Origin: Actinomycetota bacterium
GTDB lineage: Bacteria > Actinomycetota > UBA4738 > HRBIN12
Length of the DNA: 53,302 nucleotides
Reading direction: 5' to 3'
NCBI GenBank assembly: GCA_036519575.1
Contig: DATDKZ010000057.1
Coordinates: 1-53,302, forward strand
Both the position numbers and the translations under genes were made by a program. The notes under the pieces were generated by a model, which did no database searches, had not been told where the DNA came from, and was given only the letters and a program-made list of their open reading frames with translations. Below, piece after piece: positions 9,574 through 23,799 of this stretch (the first letter of the stretch is position 1; each line of letters opens with the position of its first letter).

Positions 9574-11118
9574 CTACTCCCACTCGATCGTCGCGGGGGG
9601 CTTCGATGACACGTCGTAGGCCACCCGGTTCACCCCCGGAACCTCGGCGATCACGCGGCTCGAGATCCGGTCCAGCACCTCGTCAGGGAGGCGGGCCCAA
9701 TCCGCGGTCATGGCGTCCTCGCTCGTCACCGCCCGGATCACGACCGGGTGCTCGTAGGTCCTGCCGTCGCCCATCACCCCCACGCTTCGGATATCGCCCA
9801 GGAGGACCGCGAAGCACTGCCATAGCTCGTGGTGCAGCCCGGCCCGCCGGATCTCGTCGTTCACGATGGCGTCCGCGGCCCGCACGACCGCGATTCGGTC
9901 GGGCCTGACCTCCCCGACGATCCGCACGGCGAGGCCGGGTCCGGGGAACGGCTGGCGTCGCACGACCTCCTGTGGCAGCCCGAGCTCCTCTCCCACCTCG
10001 CGAACCTCGTCCTTGAACAGGTCGCGGAGCGGCTCGATCAGCTCGAACTCCATGTCCTCGGGTAGTCCGCCGACGTTGTGGTGGCTCTTGATCCTGGCCG
10101 CCGTCCGCGATCCCGATTCGATGACGTCGGGGTAGAGGGTGCCTTGCACCAGGAACCTCGCGCCGAACGGCGCTGCCGCCTCCTCGAAGACCCGGATGAA
10201 TTCCTCTCCGATCACCTTCCGCTTCAGCTCCGGGTCGGTCACGCCGGCCAGCTTGGCCAGGAACCGGTCGGCCGCCTTGACATGGACGAGCGGAACCCGG
10301 AAGTGACGAGCGAACGTGTCCTCCACCTGCTCTGGCTCGCCGTCGCGCAGGAGCCCGGTGTCGACGAAGACGCAGGTGAGCTGGTCGCCGATCGCTCGGT
10401 GCACTAGCAGCGCCGAGACGGAGGAGTCGACGCCACCCGACAAGGCGCAAATCACCTTGGCTTGGCCCACCTGATCCCTGATGTGGGCCACGGATCGTTC
10501 GATCACGTTGGCGGGGGTCCAGTCCGGGAGCAGGCCGCAGCCCTCGTAGAGGAACCGTTTCATGACGTCGAGCCCCCGGGGCGTGTGGGCGACCTCCGGA
10601 TGGAACTGCACGCCGAAGAAGCCACGCTCCCTGTCCTCCATGGCCGCGACCGGCGTCGACTCGGTGTGGGCCGTGACCCGGAACCCATCGGGCGCCCGGA
10701 CCACGGTGTCGCCGTGGCTCATCCACACCGTGTCGATCGCCGGCAGATCGGCCAGGAGCACACCCGGCTCGTCGACGAAGAGCTCGGTGCGGCCGTACTC
10801 GCGAAGGCCCGTGGCCCGGACCTCGCCGGCCAGCGCCTGGGTCATGAACTGTTGGCCGTAACAGATGCCGAGCACCGGCAGACCGACCCCGAGAACATCC
10901 GGATCGAGAGACGGCGCGTCGTGCTCGTACACCGACGCAGGCCCCCCCGAGAGGATCAGGCCCGCCGGCCGCTTGGCCATGAGCTCGGCCACCGGCAGGT
11001 CGTGGGGGACGATCTCGGAGTACACGCGACACTCCCGAACCCGCCGCGCGATGAGCTGAGCGTACTGCGCCCCCAGGTCGACCACCAGGACGGGACGCGG
11101 GTCCTGCTCTGCGGTCAT
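9574..11118 (-). CDS. guaA: GMP synthase (glutamine-hydrolysing)
   Basis: 514 aa. GATase domain (GICYGQQ), ATP-PPase SGGVDSS motif, C-terminal KPPATIEWE. Confidence 0.95.
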
Positions 11119-11122
11119 CCGT

Positions 11123-12283
11123 TCAATGCCCCATCCCCACGTGCTGAGCCTGCTGGTACGCCTTGCCTTCGCTCTTGATGGATGGGGCCATGACCAGCTC
11201 GGCCTTCTGGAACTCCTTGATCGTGGCGTACCCAGTGGTCGCCATCGATGTGGCGAGCGCGCCGAACAGGTTCAGCGTGCCGTCGTTCTCGTGCGCCGGA
11301 CCGACGAGGATCTCGGCGAGCGAGGCGACTTGCTGGGTCTTGACCCGGGCGCCGCGCGGAAGCGTCGGGTGGAACGTGGCCATCCCCCAGTGGTGGCCCC
11401 GACCCGGAGCCTCGTAGGCGCGCGCGAGAGGGGAGCCGATCATCACCGCGTCGGCCCCGCAGGCGATGGCCTTGGCGATGTCTCCACCGGTCCGCATGCC
11501 TCCGTCCGCGACCACGTGGCAGTACCGGCCGGTCTCTCGTTGGTGTTCCGAGCGGGCCGCCGCCGCGTCGGCGACGGCCGTTGCCTGGGGGACGCCGACG
11601 CCGATGACGCCCCTGGTGGTGCAGGCGTTGCCCGGACCCACTCCCACCAGCACCCCCGCCGCGCCGGTCCGCATGAGATGGAGCGCGGTCTGGTACGACG
11701 CGCAGCCGCCGACGATCACGGGGAGGTCGAACCCAGCGATGAACTCCTTCAGGTTGAGCGGCTCTGACCGCGTGGAGACGTGCTCCGCCGAGACCACCGT
11801 GCCCTGCACGACCAGGACGTCCAGCTCGGCCTCCAGCACGAGAGGTGAGTACTGCCTGACCCGCTGCGGCGTGAGCGAGGCCGCCGCCACCACCCCACCC
11901 TCCTTGATCTCCCGGATCCGTCGGAGGATCAACTCCTCCCTGACCGGCTCCCGGTACAGCTCCTGCATCCGCCGGGTGGCCTTGTCATCGGGAAGGGCGG
12001 CGATCTCGTCGAAGACCGGCTCGGGGTCCTCGTATCGGGTCTGCAGGCCCTCCAGGTTCAGCACGGCCAGCCCGCCGAGCTTCCCGATCTCGACGGCGGT
12101 GGTGGGAGACACCGCGGCGTCCATGGCCGCGGCCATGACCGGCAGGGGAAAGGTGAACGCGTCGATCTCCCACGAGATGTCCACGTCGTCGGGGTCGCGG
12201 GTGCGCCGGGACGGAACGATGGCCACCTCGTCGAGGCCGTAGGCCCGGCGTGCCGTCCTTCCCATGCCGATCTCGATATCCAT
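11123..12283 (-). CDS. guaB3: GuaB3-type IMP dehydrogenase-related protein (no CBS insert)
   Basis: ATG 12283 with a [45 protein letters not shown]...[11 protein letters not shown]...[12 protein letters not shown]. The N-terminal 79 aa of the track ORF are rejected. Confidence 0.85.
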
Positions 12284-12500
12284 GCGCCTCCCCCAGATAG
12301 GCGGATGCCCACCCGATCCCGGGTGGGCGCCGAGTCCTACATGCGCAAACGGTACCAGCCGACCCGGCCGGAGACGACGAGCGCGTGGCCGTCTCAAGCC
12401 CTCCCGGCTTCGGGCCGATGTCGGTTCGGATGATTGAACTCGCCAACCGGCCGTCGGACAATCGCTCGGCGGCTCCCCGATCGTGAGGGGGACTCTCCCG

Positions 12501-12926
12501 ATGCAGGTACTTCGGCTCAAGCGAGGATTGTTCGGCTACACGCCGGAGAGCGTGCGCTTGCTCCTCGCCGACCGGGACAAGATGTTCATCCGGGCGGCCG
12601 AGGTGGCCCGGGCGGCCGAGGCCCTGGTGCTCGAACTTCGCGCGGAGGTGGAGGCGCTCAAGGCCCAAGTCGAAGAGCGCCAAGGGGGGCTTCGCCCCGC
12701 CGAGTCGGAGGCCGCCGGCCGTCGCACCGACCGGGCTGCTACGCGGGTGGAGCTCGACAGGGCCGCCGCCACCGTCGCGCAGCTCACGACCGACGTGGAG
12801 ACCGCACGCAAGGAGCTCGAGGACGCCCGGGAGCTCGCCCGGGTGGCCGATGCCCAGCTCGCACGGAGGACGGCGACCTCACGGTCGTTCGCCAGGAGCC
12901 GGGAACGCAACGGCGAGACTTCCTGA
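12501..12926 (+). CDS. DivIVA-domain-like coiled-coil protein
   Basis: ATG 12501 after GAGGGGGA. The N-terminus LKRGLFGYTPESVRLLL resembles the DivIVA-domain RGYD..EV..FL motif. The rest is Ala/Glu/Arg heptad-like coiled coil. High GC3. Confidence 0.6.
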   Translation: MQVLRLKRGLFGYTPESVRLLLADRDKMFIRAAEVARAAEALVLELRAEVEALKAQVEERQGGLRPAESEAAGRRTDRAATRVELDRAAATVAQLTTDVETARKELEDARELARVADAQLARRTATSRSFARSRERNGETS

Positions 12927-13024
12927 CGCCGGCGCTCGCCCCGGTGATCGATCTCCCATTTCCCAGATAAAGGACCGCCTGCTCGCGGCCGACACCTAAG
13001 AGGTCCGGACCGTGAGGAGGGGAC

Positions 13025-13585
13025 ATGGCGGCAGAGCGCTGCCCGGAGTGCCTGCTGACACCGCAGGCCGAGGAGCTGCTCGAACGGCTGGAGGACAAGC
13101 TCCGGCGAACCCGTCCGGGCGATGCGAGCTGGGAGACCACGATCTGTCCGCGGTGCGGCCGCCTCTCCGGCATCTTCGACGAGCGCGAGGGATGGTCAGT
13201 GGGCGAGGGAGGCAATCGGGGATGGGCCTCGGGCCCCGGGCCCGCGGCCGAGGCCAAGCCGGTGCCCCAGCCGAAGCGGGTGGCCGAGGAGCGGTCGATG
13301 CGGTCCCCGAAGGTCACCGAGCGGTCCACGGGATTCACGGAGGTCCCCGCGGTCTCGCCGACCACCGACTCCCGCAGGATCGACCTCGATTCGCTTCCCG
13401 TCCCCACGTGGGTCACCGTGCGAGAGGCCGCCTTCCTGGCCCGTGTCTCCGAGCAGCAGGTGCTCGAGTGGGTGAACAAGGGCACCGTCGAGCATGAAGT
13501 GATCCTGGGTGATGCGGGACACGCCGGGTGGGTGTTCGTCCGAACGCGAGACCTCGATCCGGCCCTCGCTCGCGACGCCGGCTGA
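13025..13585 (+). CDS. Zinc-ribbon (CPEC...CPRC) protein with a disordered linker and a C-terminal excisionase/MerR-type HTH
   Basis: Strong RBS GAGGAGGGG before ATG 13025. High GC3. The C-terminus WVTVREAAFLARVSEQQVLEWVNKGTV resembles an HTH_17-type helix-turn-helix. Confidence 0.65.
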   Translation: MAAERCPECLLTPQAEELLERLEDKLRRTRPGDASWETTICPRCGRLSGIFDEREGWSVGEGGNRGWASGPGPAAEAKPVPQPKRVAEERSMRSPKVTERSTGFTEVPAVSPTTDSRRIDLDSLPVPTWVTVREAAFLARVSEQQVLEWVNKGTVEHEVILGDAGHAGWVFVRTRDLDPALARDAG

Positions 13586-13609
13586 GCGAGGCGGCGCTCC
13601 CAACCGAGC

Positions 13610-14164
13610 TCAGGCGTTCGCGGGGTGTGTCGACGTCAGGTGACCGAGCTCCTCCAGCTTGGCCAGGACCATCTCCGCTGCCTCGACGGGAGAGCACTGC
13701 TCGGTGTCGATAACCAACTCGGGTCGCTGGGGCTCCTCGTACGGATCGGACACCCCGGTGAAGTTCGAGATCTCGCCGGCGATCGCCTTCTCGTACAGAC
13801 CCTTCACGTCTCGCCGAGTGACCTCCTCGAGCGAGGCCCTGACATACACCTCGACGAAGTCACCGATGAGCTCGCGGTTGCGATCGCGGATCTCCCGATA
13901 GGGCGAGATCGCGGAGCACACGGCGACCACGCCATTCCGCACCAGCAGGTTGGCGACGAACCCGATCCGCAGGATGTTGGTGTCGCGATCCTCCTTGGAG
14001 AATCCCAGGCCCTTGGACAGGTGCGTTCGCACGACGTCGCCGTCCAGCAGCTCAACCTTATGGCCTCGCCGGCGGAGCGCCGGTACGAGCAGCTCGGCGA
14101 TGGTGGACTTGCCGGCGCCAGACAGCCCGGTGAACCAGACGCAGAACCCTCGGTCCTCTATCAC
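13610..14164 (-). CDS. cysC: Adenylylsulfate (APS) kinase
   Basis: 184 aa. [21 protein letters not shown]-loop and LDGDVVR...[10 protein letters not shown] motifs. Its start overlaps the upstream gene's stop (14161-14164). Confidence 0.9.
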
Positions 14165-15555
14165 AGGAAGCTCCTTCCGACGGCGCCCTCGGGCGCCTCG
14201 ATGTCGTAGATGGAGAGGATGCTTGGGCCGACGTCGACGAGGTTCAGCCCCTCGACGCTTCCCACCAGCTGGCCGGGGAGGTTCGACAGCGCGAATACGC
14301 CGGTCCGATCGTGGTTGGCCCCGTCGGGGCCGGTGTCGTTCTCGTACGTGTAGACGCTCGGATTGCCGACGGTGCCGACCGATCGCCAGTCGAGGTCGCC
14401 GAAGTACACGATCAGGTCGGGAGCCACGCCGCGGACCTCCGGGTACACGTCCTGCGGCCTGAACACCTTAGTCCCGAGGGGCTCGCCGTCGGGTCCGGGC
14501 ATCGCCTCCAGCGCGGCGATGAGCTCGTCTCGAACCTGTTCGTACCGGCCAGGCTCGACCACCCCGTTCGGCTCTCGTCCCTCGACGTTGAGGAACAGCC
14601 GCCCGTAGTAGCCCCCGTCGCCCCAGGCCACGGTTCGGGCCCAGTCGATGGGCGCCTCGGCGATCGGCGTGACGGAGGTGAGCGGTTCCGAGAGCGAAAG
14701 GTAGCCCTGGCTCATCAGCCAGTCGTTGATACAGACGCCCCCCATCATCGGCCGAGCGCCGTGGTCGGACATCACGATCGTCACGGCGTCCTCAGGGAGG
14801 ACCTCCAGAAGTGAGCCGACCTCCTTGTCCAGGAACCTGTAATAGTCCTGAAAGGCCGTCTCGAACCGATTGCCCGCCTCGTAGCGAGGGTGTCGGGGAT
14901 CGAAGTACTCCCAGAACACGTGATGCAGACGGTCGGGCCCCATCTCCACGATCATGAAGTAGTCCCAGGGCTTGGTGGTCACCAACCGGCGGGCAACCCG
15001 GAACCTCCGCTCCGTCATCTTGAACACCTGATCGAGCACGAGCTCCATGCCCTGCTCCCGGAAGTTCGGGATGTCGAAGATGTACTGACCGGGCCCACCC
15101 AGCTCCTCCTCGATCTCGGACTGGAGCTCAGCGGGGTGGGTGTAACCCTTGTTGGAGGGCGGCGTGAGGAAACACCCGACGCGCCAGCCCTCGATGGGCT
15201 TCGGCGGGTATGAGGGTGGCACGCCGATCAGCAGCGACCGCAAACCCTTCTGCCCCAGGAGATCCCACACAGCGGGCTCCTTCACGGCATTGGAGGTCGC
15301 GATGGACAGTCTCTCGTAGGAGTTGTCCTTCCGGTTGCGGAACCCGTAGATCCCAAGCTGACCGGGGGTCTTGCCGGTCATGGCGCAGGCCCACGCCGGA
15401 ATGGTGATGGGCGGCGTGATGCTGGCGAGGTCCCCGTGCATCCCACCCTCCATCAGCTTTCGGATGTTCGGGACCTCATCGGCGAGATCGCGGAACAGGA
15501 GCTGGGGCGTGCCGCAGTCGAGCCCGATGACGGCGACTCTCGGTGCATGCGTCAT
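14161..15555 (-). CDS. Alkaline-phosphatase superfamily protein (type I phosphodiesterase/nucleotide pyrophosphatase-like)
   Basis: ATG 15555. [17 protein letters not shown]...[27 protein letters not shown] (Thr nucleophile region)...IVMSDHGA. The N-terminal 106 aa of the track ORF are rejected. Confidence 0.7.
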
Positions 15556-15666
15556 TCCTCGGCTACCCGATCGGTCGGTGGTCGCGAAAAGGAGCCCGGC
15601 GCCTTTCGCCGCAGCTCCGAGCGAGCATCCTACCAATGGGCCGGACGGGCCGACCAAGCTGCGAGA

Positions 15667-16077
15667 ATGGGGCGCGCCATGACGCTGCTCAAGCGGGTCC
15701 TGTACTGGCAGGCGGCGTTGTGGGCGTCCTCCGGCGTCGTCCTGTTCACGGTGCCCGGGTGGCTGGTCGAGCGGGTCCTCAGCCAACCGCCCGTGGGCGA
15801 TGACGTTTGGCTCCGAGCCATGGGAGCCATGGCCGTCGTCCTGTCGCTCCTGATGGTGCTGGTCGCTCACCACGTCGATGAGGTCTGGTGGTGGGCGTGG
15901 GCGTTCGTCATCCTGGAGGCTTCGACGGCGGGGCTCTTCGCGGTGAACGTCTTACTCGGTTTGCCCGCCGGCGCTGCGGCATGGCCCTGGTGGCTGATCG
16001 GTGGAGCAAACGCCGTCCTGGGGACACTGGAAGTGGTCGCGCTGGCCAGGGTGGGGATGGAACGGTCACCCGTCTAG
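15667..16077 (+). CDS. Small integral membrane protein, function unknown
   Basis: MGRAMTLLKRVLYWQAALWASSGVVLFTVPGW... has about 4 TM helices. The start is 15667 or 15679. It is divergent from the phosphodiesterase-like gene. Confidence 0.5.
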   Translation: MGRAMTLLKRVLYWQAALWASSGVVLFTVPGWLVERVLSQPPVGDDVWLRAMGAMAVVLSLLMVLVAHHVDEVWWWAWAFVILEASTAGLFAVNVLLGLPAGAAAWPWWLIGGANAVLGTLEVVALARVGMERSPV

Positions 16078-16116
16078 TTCCCGGGTGACCGTCTCCTTCC
16101 GGCGATCGTCGTTACC

Positions 16117-17808
<1,692 letters not shown>

Positions 17809-18108
17809 CTACTTCTTGTCGATGACGGCCAGGACGTCGCGTGCCGAGAGGATCAGGTACTCCTCGCCCTCGACCTTGACCTCGGTCCCCCCGTACTTGG
17901 AGTAGATGACGCTGTCGCCGGCCTTGACGTCCATCGGCACTCGCTGGCCCTCCTCGAACCGGCCCGGGCCCACCGCCACGACCTTCCCCTCCTGTGGCTT
18001 CTCCTTGGCCGTATCGGGGATCACGATGCCGGAGACGGTCGTCTCCTCCTCCTCCTGGGGCTGGACGACGATCCTGTCCTCCAGAGGCTTCAGGTTGAAC
18101 TTGGCCAT
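17809..18108 (-). CDS. groES: Co-chaperonin GroES
   Basis: 99 aa. [49 protein letters not shown]. Confidence 0.97.
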
Positions 18109-18147: not shown

Positions 18148-18174
18148 TTAGCACTCGCCCCTTGCGAGTGCTAA
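18148..18174 (-). promoter_or_regulatory. CIRCE operator (HrcA-binding inverted repeat)
   Basis: Perfect TTAGCACTC-N9-GAGTGCTAA, read directly at 18148-18174, 40 nt upstream of the groES start. Confidence 0.9.
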
Positions 18175-18307: not shown

Positions 18308-19027
18308 CTAGGTAGCGCCCTGAGTCGCCCGAACCTGGTGAGCACCGTTCGAAGTCTCCAGGTTCTGGAGACTACCGTTCCAGAATACGAAGGCCGTGGC
18401 CTCGAGTCGCGAATGGACCTCGAGCTTGCTCAGGATGTTCTGGATGTGCGTTCGGGCCGTCTGCGGACTGATGACCAAGGTCCGGGCGATGGCGTCGTTG
18501 TCGGCGCCCTCGGCCAGCAGGGCCAGGACCTGTCGCTCTCGACGGGTCAGCCTGGCCAGTCGCTCCTGAGCGACGTCAAGCTCGTGCCTGTGCGAGATGA
18601 GCCGAGACAGGAGTCCGCCGAGCATCCGAGGAGGGATCACCGTCTCGCCTCGCGACAGGGCCCGGGTCGCTTCCAGAAGGTCCACGAGGGGAGCTCGCTT
18701 GGTGTGGAACCCGCTGGCACCGGCCTCGACGGCCGCCGCGAGTGTCCCCTGGTCCTCTCCATCGGCCAGGATCAGCAGCCGACACCCGGGAACCCGCTCA
18801 TGTAGCAGGCCGACGACATGGATGGCATCGCACGCCTCGAGCCCTGCATGGAGGATGGCAACATCCGGCTCTTCGCGTCCCGCCTCCTCCACCGCCTGGA
18901 AGCCCGACTCCGCCTCCGCCACCACGAGGAGGTCGGGCTCGGCGTCGAAGGTGGCTCTGAGAGCCTCACGGAACAGGGCGTGCTGGTCGGCGAGAAGGAC
19001 CCGGATGGGCACCGGCGCGTCACTCAC
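18308..19027 (-). CDS. Distal atypical (Asp-less) NarL/LuxR response-regulator unit, possibly also translated independently
   Basis: Internal GTG at 19027 is preceded by GGGGGAG plus a 6-nt spacer. It would give 239 aa, with His where the phospho-acceptor Asp is expected. Confidence 0.5.
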
Positions 19028-19924
19028 TCCGGGCTCCCCCTTTCGCCCGCCGGCCGTCGACCAGACGACGACGCTCCTTGGCGAACTCGGCCTCCCACGC
19101 GCGTCCGAAGGAGTACCCGCGTCACGACGAGCGTTCCAGCCCAACGCCCTTCGCGAGGATCGATCGACGGTCGGCGGGGCACCTGTCGAGGCAACAGCCC
19201 CCGGCAGCGCCGTCAATCGGTGGCGCACGGCGAAGGTTGAGGCCTCCAGTCGGGAATGGACTTGCAGCTTGGTCAAGATGCTCTGAACGTGGGTCCTCAC
19301 GGTGTTCCGGCTGATCGCCAGCGCCGCCGCGATCTCCCCACCATTCGCGCCCCGCGCAAGAAGGGCAAGCACCTCTCGCTCGCGAGGAGTGAGGTGGGTG
19401 GCGAGGAGTTCCGCGTCCTCGTGCTCTGCGGCCTGGCGGCTCGCCGATCCCAGCCGGTGCGGCATGATGCGTTGCCCATCGAGGACCGCGCGGACGGAGC
19501 TCACGAACTGTGCGACAGGCGTGCGCTTGGTCAGATACCCTCGGAACCCGATCCGGAGCGCCTCCTCGGCAACTCGGCGCTCCTCCAGCGCGGTCAGCGC
19601 GAGGATCTTCGCTTCGGGCCAGTCGTGCAATATCCGCTTCCCGGCGAGCAGCCCGCTCTGATCGGGGAGAGCGACATCCATCAGGACCAGATCCGGACGC
19701 TCCCGCAACACACTTGTGACCGCGTCTTCGGCGGTCCCCGACACGCCGGCGACGACAACCCCCGCGGCCTCCAGGGCCGACCTGATGGCCTCGGCGAACA
19801 GCGACTGGCCGTCCACGATCAGGACACTCTGCGAGACCTCGCCATTGGCTAGTGCACTCAGCGTAGCTCCCCTCGATTGGACCGTTGCATATGCCTGCAA
19901 CGGCTCTGGCAGTCTAGAACGCAT
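18308..19924 (-). CDS. Stop-free ORF encoding two NarL/LuxR-type response regulators in tandem (REC-HTH-linker-REC-HTH)
   Basis: Part of track ORF 18308..20272. ATG 19924 is preceded by GAAGGA-N6. Unit 1 reads [40 protein letters not shown]. Unit 2 reads [42 protein letters not shown]. There is no stop between the units. The 5' end is uncertain because the first ~30 codons have low GC3. Confidence 0.6.
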
Positions 19925-20162
19925 AGCGCGTCCTTCGCAAGCTATTGGGACTCTGAGCGTGTTCCTGAGATCCCGTTTCGCCGCAGCTACAATTGATCCG
20001 GAGGTCTCTGCCATATCAGTGCACTTGTCACCTGGAGCATCGACCGGCAAGCGTAGGAAATTTCGATGCTGTTCGGGAGATGGCCGTGGAACCGATCCCG
20101 CCCAAGTCTTACACTGGCGCTCTCCCCGCCGATGGTGGAAATGCGGCGTCCGGAACTGAGCG

Positions 20163-20621
20163 ATGGATCCTCTTGCACTCGAGATCGGCCGAGCCCTTCG
20201 CCGGGCGCGACGAGCACGTGGGTTGACGTTGCGAGAGCTCACACGACAGTCGGCTGGGCGGTTCAAGGCCACCTCGGTGGCCGGCTACGAGCGCGGTGAG
20301 CGCACGATCTCGGTCGAGCGCTTCTGCGAGCTCTGCGTTCTGTACTGCGTTGCTCCACAGGCGGTGCTGGGAGACATCCTGGTCGCGGTTGGTGGAGGCG
20401 CCGAGCGCGAGATCGACCTTTCGCGGCTGGAGACGATGCGATCGGCGGAGGGCCCGCTCCTGTCGGAGTTCGTGCGGCAGATCAAGGCGTTGAGGGGAAA
20501 AGCCTCTTCGGAGACGATCGCGCTCAGGGCGGGCGACATCGAGGTATTGGCAACGGCGGCGGGCAAGAAACCGGAGGAGCTCGCGGAGGCGATCGAACCG
20601 ACCGTCCGCAAGAAGGATTGA
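20163..20621 (+). CDS. BldD-like XRE-family transcriptional regulator (N-terminal HTH plus BldD-type C-terminal domain)
   Basis: 152 aa. [49 protein letters not shown] parallels my recollection of the BldD N-terminal domain. The C-terminus [24 protein letters not shown] aligns with the BldD IQSQRGDYNGKVLSIRQDDLRTLA region. Confidence 0.65.
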
Positions 20622-20633
20622 GCGGACGGTCGC

Positions 20634-21578
20634 TCAGACCCCCTTCAGGTACGCCACGGTCTCGGACAGCCCATCGACGAGGTGGGTCCAGGGATGCCAC
20701 CCCAGGACCTCGGCAGCGAGCTCGACGTCGAGCGCGTTCCGCCGGACCTCCCCAGAAGGCAGCGGTCCGCTGGCGGGCTGTCCTGTGAACCCGATGATCT
20801 CGGCGAGCATCCGGTAGAGACCGTTCACCGAGGTCTCCAGGCCCGTTCCGATATTGACCAGCCGCCCGCTCCCCCGGTCGGCGGCCAAGGCCAGGGCATG
20901 CACGACGTCGTCGACGAACACGTAGTCCCTGGTCTGGTTCCCGTCGCCGAAGATCGTGGGCGTCTCGCCGGCCAGCATCCTGGAGGCGAAGATGGAGATC
21001 ACCCCCGATTCGCCTGAGGGGTCCTGCCGTGGGCCGTAGACGTTGGCCAGGGCGAGCGCGGCGAAGTCGATCCCCCGGAACCGCTTGTAGTGCTCGAGGT
21101 AATCGATGCCGACCTTCTTGCTGATCCCGTAGGGCGACCCCGGGCGTGATCCCGTCGCCGAGGACTCCTTCACCGGAAGCCGGCGGGCATCGCCGTAGAG
21201 CGTGCCGCCGGAGGCGGCGTACACGACCTTCCGCACGCCGATCTTGACGGAGCACTCCATCACGTTGAGCAGGCCCATGATGTTCACGCTGGCGTCGAAC
21301 GCCGGATCCTCCAGCGATCGGCGCACGCCGGCCTGGGCCCCGAGATGCACGACCACCTCCGGCTGGTGCCGCTCGAACAGCTGGAGGAGGCCGTCGGAAC
21401 GCAGGTCCATGTTGAAGAACGTGAACTCCGACCCATAGCTCCGCGCCTCCGCGAGGTTGGCGATCTTGCCGGCGGAGAGGTCGTCCACCGCCAGCACACG
21501 ATGGCCCTCGGCCAGGAGCCGGTCCGACACATGCGATCCGATGAAGCCGGCTCCTCCGGTGACGAGGTAGGCGATCAC
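20634..21578 (-). CDS. NAD-dependent epimerase/dehydratase (extended SDR, GalE-like)
   Basis: GTG 21578 overlaps the tsaD stop (GTGA). (M)IAYLVTGGAGFIGSHV...YGISK (YxxxK). 314 aa. The rest of track ORF 20634..22553 is rejected. Confidence 0.85.
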   Translation of the reverse strand: MIAYLVTGGAGFIGSHVSDRLLAEGHRVLAVDDLSAGKIANLAEARSYGSEFTFFNMDLRSDGLLQLFERHQPEVVVHLGAQAGVRRSLEDPAFDASVNIMGLLNVMECSVKIGVRKVVYAASGGTLYGDARRLPVKESSATGSRPGSPYGISKKVGIDYLEHYKRFRGIDFAALALANVYGPRQDPSGESGVISIFASRMLAGETPTIFGDGNQTRDYVFVDDVVHALALAADRGSGRLVNIGTGLETSVNGLYRMLAEIIGFTGQPASGPLPSGEVRRNALDVELAAEVLGWHPWTHLVDGLSETVAYLKGV

Positions 21579-22579
21579 GCAAGCTCCAACCCGGGATCGG
21601 CGGCCACGTTGAACGGGGACCGGTAGCCTCGGGCCAGGCGCGAAGCCCCGGCCACGGCGATCATCGCGGCGTTGTCGGTGCACAACTCGAGGGACGGGAA
21701 CTGGACGCCGATCCCAGCCTCCGCCCCGGCCTTCTCCATCCGTTCCCGGAGCCGAGTGTTGGCCACCACCCCACCCCCGAGGAGCACGGCCTTGACGCCA
21801 TGCTCCTTGGCGGCTGCGATGGTCTTCGACACCTGGACATCGACGATGGCCTCCTGAAAGGAGGCCGCGAGGTCGGCGGTGTCGACCTCGCGGCCGGCAG
21901 CCCTCTCGGCCTTCACGTGGCGAAGCACGGAGGTCTTCAGCCCGGACATCGAGAAGTCGTAGTTCCCCGTGTCGATCATGGCCCGGGGAAAGGTGATGGC
22001 GGCGGGATCGCCCTCTCGGGCCAGCCTGTCCAGGGCCGGCCCACCCGGAAACTCCAGGCCGAGGAATCGGGCGATCTTGTCGAACGCCTCTCCCGCGGCG
22101 TCGTCGACGGTCTGGCCCAGTACCCGGTAGCGGTGCTCCTCGGGCATGTGCACGAGCATGGTGTGCCCACCCGAGACGACCAGACAGATGTACGGCGGCT
22201 CCGGCGGGCCGTGTTCGATGAAGTTCGCGTAGATGTGCCCCTCGAGGTGATTCACCCCGATGAGATCGGCTCCCGTCGCAACGGCGACCGCTTTCGCGGC
22301 CGCGACCCCCACCAGCAGGGCGCCGACCAATCCCGGCCCCACCGTCACCGCCACGCCGTCCAGGTCGGCGAAGCGACACCCCGCCCGGTCGAGCGCTTCG
22401 TCCATCAGTGGGTTCAGGGCTTGCACGTGGGCTCTGGAGGCCACCTCGGGCACGACCCCGCCGAACCTGGCATGCAGGTCGGTCTGGCTGGCGACGAAGT
22501 TGGCCAGGACGATCGCGCCATCCTCGATGACCGCGACCGCGGTCTCGTCGCACGAGGTCTCGATGCCCAGGACCCTCAC
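21575..22579 (-). CDS. tsaD: tRNA N6-adenosine threonylcarbamoyltransferase TsaD
   Basis: 334 aa. MRVLGIETSCDETAVAV...GGHTML...LGGGVVAN. Confidence 0.95.
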   Translation of the reverse strand: MRVLGIETSCDETAVAVIEDGAIVLANFVASQTDLHARFGGVVPEVASRAHVQALNPLMDEALDRAGCRFADLDGVAVTVGPGLVGALLVGVAAAKAVAVATGADLIGVNHLEGHIYANFIEHGPPEPPYICLVVSGGHTMLVHMPEEHRYRVLGQTVDDAAGEAFDKIARFLGLEFPGGPALDRLAREGDPAAITFPRAMIDTGNYDFSMSGLKTSVLRHVKAERAAGREVDTADLAASFQEAIVDVQVSKTIAAAKEHGVKAVLLGGGVVANTRLRERMEKAGAEAGIGVQFPSLELCTDNAAMIAVAGASRLARGYRSPFNVAADPGLELA

Positions 22580-22589
22580 CGGCGCACGC

Positions 22590-23090
22590 TCACGGGCGAA
22601 CGCCGTCTGGGAGCTGCTCGGCCAGTCCTCGCAATCGCCTTTGGTATTCGGGCCCGTTCACGTCGTCGACCCACATGACGAGGGCGTCCTCGTTCACCTC
22701 CTGGTAGTAGTTCTTGCGGACGCCGACCGGTCGGAACCCGAACTTTCCGTATAACCGCTGCGCGCCGTAGTTCGAGACGCGGACCTCCAGGGAGACGGCC
22801 TGCGCGCCGGCCGCAACCGCATTCTGGATGAGGTCGTGCAGCAAGCGCATCCCGATCTTGTTGCGCTGGTGTTCGGGGTCGACGGCGATGTTCGTGACGT
22901 GGGCCTCTTCACCATACGCGATGAGGCCGCCGTACCCCACGATCTCCTTGTCCATCCGGGCCACGAGGTAGCACCGGTTCCGGGTCTCGGCCATCTCCGA
23001 GAGGAACAGGTTGGGACTCCACGGTCGAGGGTAGACCTGGCGCTCGATGGCCATCACGCCGCGCAGATGGCGGCGGCGCATCCGGGTCAC
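22590..23090 (-). CDS. rimI: Ribosomal-protein-alanine N-acetyltransferase RimI (GNAT)
   Basis: GNAT motifs AHVTNIAVDPEHQRNKIGMRLL and YGKFGF. I chose the GTG at 23090, just downstream of the tsaB stop. The track ORF extends to ATG 23138, which would be a 47-nt overlap and remains an alternative. Confidence 0.8.
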   Translation of the reverse strand: MTRMRRRHLRGVMAIERQVYPRPWSPNLFLSEMAETRNRCYLVARMDKEIVGYGGLIAYGEEAHVTNIAVDPEHQRNKIGMRLLHDLIQNAVAAGAQAVSLEVRVSNYGAQRLYGKFGFRPVGVRKNYYQEVNEDALVMWVDDVNGPEYQRRLRGLAEQLPDGVRP

Positions 23091-23091
23091 C

Positions 23092-23799
23092 TCAAGCCGT
23101 GGCGCCTCGGGCTCGCTGATCCCAAGCGATCTCCGCATCCGACTTCCTCAGGTAGAGCGGCAACACCTCGAATGATCGGTCGGTCTCCTCCCGGATGAAG
23201 CGCGGGACGGCCAGCTCGACCATCTCCGACGCCTCCGGGTAGGCCTGCGGGGACGATGCGAACTCTACCCCGGCCCCGACCGCCTCGAACTCCTTCCGAT
23301 ACAGGATGGCACCGTTCCCCACGAGCAGCACCTCTTCCCGGGCCGCCTCCAGCTCGGCGGCCAGATGACCGGGCGGGGCCACCCCGTACTCGCCCAACCG
23401 CATCACGCCCCCCGGAACTCCCCGGTACAGCGCGTAGAACACCTCGCCTCGCCGGGCATCGATCGCGGCCCCGATGAGCCGGCTCGTGTAGCGGACCCCG
23501 AAGGCCAGGACGTCGAGCGAGGGGATGCCCACGATGGGGACCGAGAGCACCTGGGCCAGCGTCTTGCCGGTCGCCACGCCCACCCGCAGCCCGGTGAACA
23601 GGCCGGGGCCCACGCCAACTGCGACACCGCCCACGTGTGACAAGTCGACGCCCGTCCATTCCAGCAGGTGCTCGAGGATTGGGACCACCTGGTCCTGCCG
23701 CGCCTGGGACGCGAGCTGCACGGAAGCCATCACGCCCTGCTCGGTGCCGAGGGCAACGGAAGTCTGTGGGGTCGACGTCTCGATGCCGAGGACGATCAC
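23092..23799 (-). CDS. tsaB: tRNA threonylcarbamoyladenosine biosynthesis protein TsaB
   Basis: GTG 23799 overlaps the tsaE stop (GTGA). (M)IVLGIETSTPQTSVALG...VGVGPGLFTGLRVGVATGKTLA. Confidence 0.88.
   Translation of the reverse strand: MIVLGIETSTPQTSVALGTEQGVMASVQLASQARQDQVVPILEHLLEWTGVDLSHVGGVAVGVGPGLFTGLRVGVATGKTLAQVLSVPIVGIPSLDVLAFGVRYTSRLIGAAIDARRGEVFYALYRGVPGGVMRLGEYGVAPPGHLAAELEAAREEVLLVGNGAILYRKEFEAVGAGVEFASSPQAYPEASEMVELAVPRFIREETDRSFEVLPLYLRKSDAEIAWDQRARGATA

Follow-up and report, generated by a model that had tools for sequence, protein, structure and literature searches.

Comparative analysis of a 53,302-nt contig of an Actinomycetota bacterium (GenBank assembly GCA_036519575.1, contig DATDKZ010000057.1; this whole stretch is referred to below as the window) revealed a minus-strand gene, located just upstream of groES, that joins two complete NarL-family response regulators, RR1 and RR2, in one reading frame. 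The sequence comparisons described below show a clade-fixed fusion of two adjacent paralogous response-regulator genes. The fused gene combines the two regulators of an operon with the order histidine kinase (HK)-RR1-RR2, from which the kinase was deleted, and we consider it probable that the product acts as a tethered single-chain heterodimer.

The frame is free of stop codons over 654 codons (18308-20272), and its translation contains, in the order REC-HTH-REC-HTH, two receiver domains (REC; Response_reg, PF00072, whole-protein E = 3e-33) and two LuxR/GerE-type helix-turn-helix domains (HTH; GerE, PF00196, E = 1.6e-36); NarL-type NCBIfam models each match it twice. Thus, the observation of two complete REC+LuxR-HTH units in one uninterrupted frame, made earlier from the DNA alone (the sequence-only reading), is borne out. 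Analyzed separately, as that reading had proposed, both halves align end to end to the NarL-family structures 5hev, 4gvp, 1a04, and 4ldz from PDB (HMMER, E from 1e-26 to 1e-31), and by domain content each half is a member of the NarL/FixJ family. The recognition helices of the two units are near-identical (NTVRTHVQS and QTARTHIQN). An AlphaFold2 (AF2) model of the full-length protein, also proposed earlier, contains two well-folded units, each with the (beta-alpha)5 pattern and with a predicted local distance difference test score (pLDDT) of about 90, and a disordered linker with pLDDT below 35 (residues 241-301). The arrangement is that of a tandem single-chain regulator, two complete regulator units being encoded by a single conserved open reading frame (ORF).

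When the whole ORF was used as a protein query, eleven clusters (formed at 90% identity) were retrieved, with 82-94% identity and lengths of 506-542 amino acids (aa), all in the REC-HTH-REC-HTH order. The DNA of these clusters, together with a metagenome scan, yielded twelve independent fused loci from different samples (the window, L001, L005-L009, L094, and L096-L099), in which a stop-free, in-frame gap of 207 or 204 nt separates the units. Relatives in which RR1 and RR2 are separate adjacent genes were identified by scanning species-representative genomes and by searching for proteins with unit 2 only, namely L092, L093, and L101 (86-88% identity), L095 (76-79%), and L103-L105; the two genes are also separate in at least 17 metagenome-assembled genomes (MAGs) with 45-63% identity. 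Orthologous loci thus contain one gene in the twelve loci of the window's clade and two genes in the split relatives, and the stop codon or frameshift between the units that had been considered for close relatives is absent from all twelve fused loci, the split relatives having separate genes and a kinase.

Several candidates and data sets were set aside in this comparison. A word-prefiltered search with the 538-aa query missed split relatives to which half of the query is 86% identical, so that failure to appear in this search does not mean absence; the lack of split relatives among the matches of the whole fusion was rejected as evidence after the unit-2-only query had found them at 86%. An apparent free RR2 (P0206 on contig L094, 82% identity) was rejected as well: the contig ends inside RR1 with the frame open, and the locus is a fused one, in which the gene caller used the internal GTG. 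Three MFD long-read MAGs (L018, L036, and L039) are uninformative on the fused versus split state; their frames are broken by frameshifts inside single domains, most likely indel errors of the long-read assembly.

In all split relatives, the gene located 0-200 nt upstream of RR1 encodes a protein of approximately 500 aa that contains a GAF domain, the H-box HELRAPL, and HATPase_c. A tblastn search with the relatives' kinase found no ortholog in any locus of the window's clade or in the 53-kb window, and a tblastn search with 12 HK-containing proteins found no histidine kinase in the window, in agreement with the sequence-only reading. The left flank of L092 is orthologous to that of the window, the epimerases being 90% identical. 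By this comparison, the ancestral locus is reconstructed as a BldD-like gene divergent from an operon for the GAF-histidine kinase, RR1, and RR2. Alignment of window positions 20170-19800 with L092 by blastn gives two collinear pieces, one with the BldD-HK intergenic region and the 5' end of the kinase gene, and the other with the 3' end of the kinase gene and the start of RR1, so that the RR1 start region follows immediately on a remnant of the kinase 5' end. The kinase was excised cleanly, as the alignment jumps from the first ~20 kinase codons to the last ones and the RR1 start; the deletion in the window's clade was almost exact, with ~20 N-terminal codons left.

Two further observations concern the distribution of the gene arrangements. 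RR1 and RR2 of L022 (3018-3635 and 6001-6639) are approximately 2.4 kb apart, compared with 85-320 nt in the other loci, a distance suggestive of an insertion between the two genes. A split, kinase-bearing locus (L101) and a fused, kinase-less one (L102) both come from the sample series Ga0184612; the forms thus coexist in one habitat, as separate populations or, possibly, as recombining alleles.

Nucleotide alignment with the split relatives identified the change that joined the two frames, a 1-nt deletion present in all fused loci: the window has GATCC followed by TCGCGA, with the junction between 19157 and 19156, at the place where L092 has GTCCGTCGCGA. RR1 ended ancestrally with a TAG stop, ~33 nt beyond the deletion site. 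Where this stop used to be (19124-19122), the window still has TGA, out of frame, and the former 94-nt spacer (19121-19028) is now translated in frame. The linker begins with the native tail of RR1 and ~11 codons read in the shifted frame, continues with the translated spacer, and ends with the native N-terminus of RR2. It is rich in Arg, Ser, Pro, and Gly, and its G+C content is 0.63-0.67 at third codon positions (GC3) and ~0.8 at second positions (GC2), whereas the flanking units show values normal for coding DNA in a window of 68% G+C (first positions, ~0.75; GC2, ~0.45; GC3, 0.75-0.95). This confirms the intergenic-like excess of A/T at third codon positions noted previously. The comparisons support the interpretation of the linker as a former intergenic spacer and of the fusion as evolutionarily young. 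The earlier suggestion of a recently lost stop is therefore right as to the age of the fusion and wrong as to its cause, a single-base deletion that bypasses the stop rather than loss of the stop codon itself.

Neither unit has a complete phospho-acceptor pocket (acidic pair, Asp, Thr or Ser, and Lys) in the alignments. In unit 2, the His of 'AILHAG' (codon 18850-18848) faces the acceptor Asp of 5hev in the HMMER alignment, the Ala of 'LILADG' faces the conserved Thr, the Lys is kept, and the second acidic position is occupied by Gln (D-Q instead of D-D); the joint MAFFT table gives the pocket D-Q-H-A-K. Both methods thus confirm the exchanges of Asp for His and of Thr for Ala seen in the sequence-only reading, the profile alignment leaves the His at the acceptor position, and the pocket supports the interpretation of unit 2 as a pseudo-receiver. 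In unit 1, the acceptor Asp is kept (codon 19678-19676), and the pocket is D-G-D-T-K, with Gly at the second, Mg-binding acidic position (19810-19808; alignment and MAFFT). The proposed pairing of a typical with an atypical regulator accordingly holds for the atypical unit 2 but not for a fully typical unit 1. The D-G pair of REC1 is found only in the subclade of the window, L007-L009 having D-D or D-E, and RR1 of the split relatives has the typical pocket D-D-D-T-K; the window's subclade has additionally lost the second acidic residue of REC1. RR2 of the kinase-bearing L092 and L095 already has Gln, His, and Ala in its pocket; thus, even before the two genes were fused, a typical RR1 had RR2 as a pseudo-receiver partner.

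The same RR1-RR2 module was fused separately in other lineages. In L016 (P0012-14), the linker is ~17 aa long and the kinase is kept, and the nearest relative of this locus, L035, is split (78-83% identity); a further separate fusion is found in L024 (P0056). Judged by these sequences, RR1-RR2 fusions have arisen at least three times independently. The pair is kept as adjacent genes in more than 20 loci. The repeated fusion of one and the same pair suggests, by the 'Rosetta-stone' logic, a physical interaction between RR1 and RR2. The architecture itself, which the sequence-only reading did not know as a described one, is not unique: among the best 150 hits of an exhaustive profile search of 1.84 billion representatives, there are ~19 further tandem REC-HTH-REC-HTH clusters (50%-identity clusters, 428-549 aa), all of them metagenomic and with generic names only. 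To our knowledge, no tandem NarL-type regulator has been characterized so far.

We propose the following model for the fused regulator: (i) the product would be a single chain of ~55-58 kDa, in which a disordered tether of ~60 aa connects the two REC-HTH units, (ii) the covalently tethered RR1/RR2 heterodimer would place the near-identical helices (RTHVQ and RTHIQ) on an operator with two half-sites, (iii) the tether would stand in for phosphorylation-driven dimerization, allowing the regulator to work without a kinase, and (iv) control would be exerted through expression of the gene, driven by what was formerly the kinase promoter. Free RR2 could be produced in addition from the retained internal start; it would not be required, as one lineage lost the homolog of GTG 19027 and kept the fusion. 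Replacement of phosphorylation by the tether is consistent with the co-occurrence of the fusion with kinase loss and with the later decay of the Mg-binding Asp of REC1. At least three independent fusions and the maintenance of the frame in the clade make the idea of a hard-wired heterodimer, proposed in the sequence-only reading, plausible.

The upstream region bears on where translation of this chain begins. Two hexamers, TTGCGA and TAGACT, separated by 18 nt, form a promoter-like block that is nearly invariant in the fused clade and also present ahead of the kinase gene in L092; this block is probably the old operon promoter. ATG 19924, from which a 538-aa product had been predicted, lies inside its spacer, and in L092 this ATG opens only a short out-of-frame ORF. 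ATG 19924 is therefore probably not the start codon, and of that prediction the open frame stands and the length becomes uncertain. Of the eleven clade relatives compared, nine have ATG, GTG, or TTG at the third codon ahead of 'VLIVDG', and TCG is found there in the window, L007, and L098; L096 and L097, which are 96-97% identical to the window, have TTG at the place of its TCG (19834-19832). This codon is probably the usual start in the clade, lost in the window. TTG 19900 is in frame with the fused ORF. ATG 19890-19888, where the ancestral kinase gene started, is not in frame with the fused ORF; its own ORF comprises 10 codons, up to TGA 19860-19858.

Several points weigh against a tethered heterodimer as the functional product. 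First, translation of unit 1 in the window strain is uncertain, the proximal start being lost (TCG) and ATG 19924 lying in the promoter-like block. Second, the linker has in total diverged about as much as the domains have at synonymous sites, a nearly neutral rate, and in 12% of the runs of a neutral simulation on the tree of synonymous distances (dS) none of the seven linkers acquired a stop. Third, a neighbor-joining tree nests the split L092 inside the fused clade, together with L007-L009, with 2% bootstrap for fused monophyly. Fourth, the confidence of the AF2 model is per residue and does not extend to intramolecular REC-REC or HTH-HTH packing. Fifth, the kinase search covered the 53-kb window, and a kinase copy could be encoded elsewhere in the genome. 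Finally, the ancestral Shine-Dalgarno sequence and GTG of RR2 are kept in most members, and free RR2 could be the main functional product. Regarding the tree, informative sites are distributed 12:8:0 in favor of fused monophyly, and the kinase-deletion junction and the 1-nt deletion, two rare genomic changes common to the fused loci, argue for a single origin of the fusion; recombination between alleles may also have occurred.

The internal start raises the possibility of a dual output, in which the full-length fusion is accompanied by free RR2 from GTG 19027, giving a fixed excess of RR2 over RR1. The Shine-Dalgarno sequence and GTG described earlier for unit 2 are present: RR2 of L092 and L095 begins at a GTG homologous to GTG 19027 ('VSDTPDPIRV'), and in distant relatives RR2 likewise starts ~21 nt ahead of 'IRVLLAD' with a Shine-Dalgarno sequence before it. 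By position, GTG 19027 thus corresponds to the ancestral RR2 start codon. The purine tract and the GTG are found at exactly this place in the window and 10 of the 11 other fused loci, and the gene caller used the internal start on contig L094. The exception is the L001/P0004/P0006 lineage, in which the GTG is replaced by GGG, the Shine-Dalgarno sequence is weakened, and the frame is still open; moreover, retention over a dS of ~0.3 is not distinguishable from lack of time. A dual output is thus possible but doubtful. Equally tentative is a more elaborate proposal, in which the covalent fusion served as an escape route of the two-regulator branch from its kinase, the constitutive heterodimer being set by the former kinase promoter and the internal start adding a tunable surplus of free RR2.

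A simpler view is that the two units became linked incidentally, by read-through after kinase loss, when a neutral or slightly deleterious 1-nt deletion carried RR1 on into RR2, with RR2 made mainly from its own Shine-Dalgarno sequence and GTG, RR1 carrying a useless tail, and the link itself without function. The near-neutral divergence and low GC3 of the linker fit this view, as do the non-significance of stop-freeness when taken alone (P = 0.12), the RR2 start signals retained in most members, and the young age of the fusion, the depth of which is about the same as that of the split from L092. On the other hand, all six separate linker indels (P0003, P0004, P0005, P0008, P0010, and P0011) are multiples of three, no frameshifted or stop-containing linker allele was found among the twelve loci and eleven clusters, and the same pair was fused independently at least twice more. 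In the L001/P0004 lineage without the internal GTG, unit 2 is still under purifying selection in the fused frame. Since stop-freeness alone is not significant, the main argument that the frame is maintained comes from the in-frame indels; together with the absence of frameshifts and the GTG loss in the L001 lineage, they give moderate support to selection on a continuous frame. We regard incidental read-through as rather unlikely.

The ratio of nonsynonymous to synonymous substitution rates (dN/dS; Nei-Gojobori, seven fused loci) is 0.23 for unit 1, 0.22 for unit 2, and 0.59 (range 0.43-1.45) for the linker, so that neither unit is a pseudogene. An artefact of sequencing or assembly (a missed stop or indel) or a decaying gene, suggested by the low-GC3, Arg/Ser/Pro/Gly-rich linker and the lost partner kinase, is effectively refuted by the dN/dS of ~0.22 in both units and by the same frame in twelve independent loci, assembled from many samples and sources.

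Heterodimers of response regulators are considered rare, and few have been documented (BldM-WhiI and RcsB with its partners). The tethered heterodimer proposed here would therefore have precedents within the NarL family, in which BldM-WhiI and RcsB-RcsA include an atypical partner (PMC4125116). With degenerate pockets and no adjacent kinase in the window, the fused protein fits the atypical, orphan class as defined in that work. Compared by description with BldM-WhiI (PMC4125116), it has in common the NarL/FixJ family, the pairing of a typical-looking regulator with an atypical one, and the absence of an adjacent kinase; WhiI lacks one of the paired Asp residues, and so do both units of the fused protein. 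However, BldM and WhiI are encoded by separate unlinked genes and depend on different sigma factors, whereas the units of the fused protein come from former neighbors in an operon with a cognate kinase and form one polypeptide. In E. coli, RcsB-RcsA, RcsB-BglJ, and RcsB-GadE (PMC4125116) similarly combine a phosphorylatable LuxR-HTH regulator with an auxiliary LuxR-HTH partner that has no functional receiver. RcsB-RcsA differs in that the proteins are separate, the N-terminal domain of RcsA is not a receiver, and the kinase and phosphorelay are kept. Canonical NarL, LiaR, VraR, and DesR (5hev, 4gvp, 1a04, and 4ldz) share with each fused half the layout of a REC and a four-helix HTH, but they are single units that dimerize after phosphorylation by a cognate kinase, whereas the fused protein has two units with degraded pockets and its kinase is gone.

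Closer comparisons are possible with the split operons and the other tandem proteins. In the split HK-RR1-RR2 operons (L092, L095, and L010-L035), RR1 and RR2 are orthologous to the fused units, with identities of up to 88%, and the BldD-like gene and the epimerase/tsaD flank are the same; these operons are set apart from the fused locus in that the kinase, RR1, and RR2 are encoded separately, the GAF-HATPase_c kinase is intact, and RR1 has a typical pocket. Other tandem proteins (P0012-14, P0056, P0058, P0074, and others) have the same architecture, an independent origin, and linkers of ~10-45 aa; the kinase is kept beside P0012 and L016, and several have the degenerate receiver in the first unit. 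Thus, the kind of pairing is known, and what is new is that a typical and an atypical regulator have been tethered to each other in nature, by a recent event that can be traced and that was accompanied by loss of the kinase.

If the more elaborate proposal of an escape from the kinase is true, the recurrent fusions would show that RR1/RR2 heterodimerization is the normal mode of a widespread HK-RR1-RR2 module in uncultured Actinomycetota. The close relatives provide a natural before-and-after series, in which HK, RR1, and RR2 as three genes can be compared with a kinase-less RR1-RR2 chain, and the clade, composed of uncultured soil actinobacteria, is a natural test case for paired regulators as a physical couple. 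The locus opens to test typical/atypical NarL heterodimers, tethering in place of phosphorylation, and the decay or rewiring of two-component systems after kinase loss. It is also a clean and dated case of an intergenic spacer turned into a disordered protein linker by a single-base deletion. For annotation, it should be noted that gene callers name the product simply 'NarL/FixJ response regulator'. The features of the locus are listed in Table 1.

Table 1. Features of the fused regulator locus and its surroundings (window coordinates)
Feature	Position	Strand	Basis or remark
Fused RR1-RR2 ORF	18308..19924	-	538 codons from ATG 19924; frame open up to 20272; start codon position uncertain
Receiver domain 1 (REC1)	19493..19825	-	Pfam, alignment, MAFFT
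HTH 1, LuxR/GerE-type (LTPREREVL...FAVRHRL)	19214..19393	-	Pfam, alignment
Linker, 69 codons	19007..19213	-	DNA alignment with split L092/L093/L095, AF2, dN/dS
Receiver domain 2 (REC2), pseudo-receiver	18653..19006	-	Pfam, alignment, MAFFT, AF2
HTH 2, LuxR/GerE-type (LTRRERQVL...AFVFW)	18380..18550	-	Pfam, alignment
Shine-Dalgarno-like AAAGGGGGAG (19043-19034), then GTG 19027-19025	19025..19043	-	Ancestral RR2 ribosome-binding site and start, retained in the fused frame
TCG codon, three codons before 'VLIVDG'	19832..19834	-	Clade comparison
Scar of the kinase deletion, with ~20 codons left from the 5' end of the GAF-histidine kinase gene	19829..19888	-	blastn vs L092
Promoter-like block TTGCGA (19940-19935), 18 nt, TAGACT (19916-19911)	19911..19940	-	Sequence conservation
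Divergent BldD-like regulator (HTH_31 + BldD-like C domain)	20163..20621	+	Kept beside HK-RR1-RR2 in relatives

The fused loci have a common gene order, tsaD - NAD-epimerase - BldD-like gene (opposite strand) - fused gene - groES - groEL. Window positions 9574-17739 and 20634-23147 hold a typical actinobacterial backbone (rimI - tsaD ... groES - groEL ... IMPDH-like - guaA - UvrD/PcrA), with an insertion of the genes for the epimerase, the BldD-like protein, and the regulator between tsaD and groES; a type I phosphodiesterase gene (14161-15873) follows groEL. The sequence-only reading had equated this neighborhood with that of bldM, which lies between groES/groEL1 and guaB in Streptomyces. The gene order of the window does not support this: the fused gene precedes groES, with tsaD-epimerase-BldD-like on its other side, and is thus outside the groEL-guaB interval, and no other REC/LuxR gene was found between groEL and IMPDH in the window. 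The ancestry seen in the relatives is an HK-RR1-RR2 operon. The tRNA and Rfam scans of the window found no matches.

The groES gene (17809-18108, minus strand) is preceded by a perfect CIRCE element, TTAGCACTC-N9-GAGTGCTAA (18148-18174), with 0 mismatches and none expected by chance, and directly ahead of it there is a promoter-like TTGACC-17-TATCCT (18204-18176). The groES-groEL genes thus have their own HrcA-type control, and therefore co-transcription with the fused regulator is not necessary.

The BldD-like gene accompanies HK-RR1-RR2 in most relatives (e.g., L092:675-1154 and L095:2866-3345). The N-terminal HTH of its product (aa 1-58) is nearly invariant, whereas the C-terminal domain shows only ~58% identity when the fused clade is compared with L092, the values for the flanking epimerase and the regulators being 90% and 86-88%. 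The C-terminal domain has thus diverged sharply on the branch of kinase loss and fusion.

The RR1-RR2 spacers of distant split relatives (L010-L014, L017, L020, L025, L027, L030, L033, L035, and L039) contain a 15-nt palindrome, CGTAG-N5-CTACG, at a nearly constant distance of 94-117 nt before the RR2 receiver, followed by a GCGTGTC box and a -10-like hexamer TAnnnT; these elements are probably the operator and promoter for RR2 in these relatives. The exact palindrome has 0 matches in the window, where only degenerate remnants are found and no operator is claimed. A one-mismatch version, CGTCGTAAC(T)TTCCTACG, is conserved ahead of the operon, both in L092 and in the fused clade; in the window it is degenerate and located at 20052-20068 (CATCGAAATTTCCTACG).

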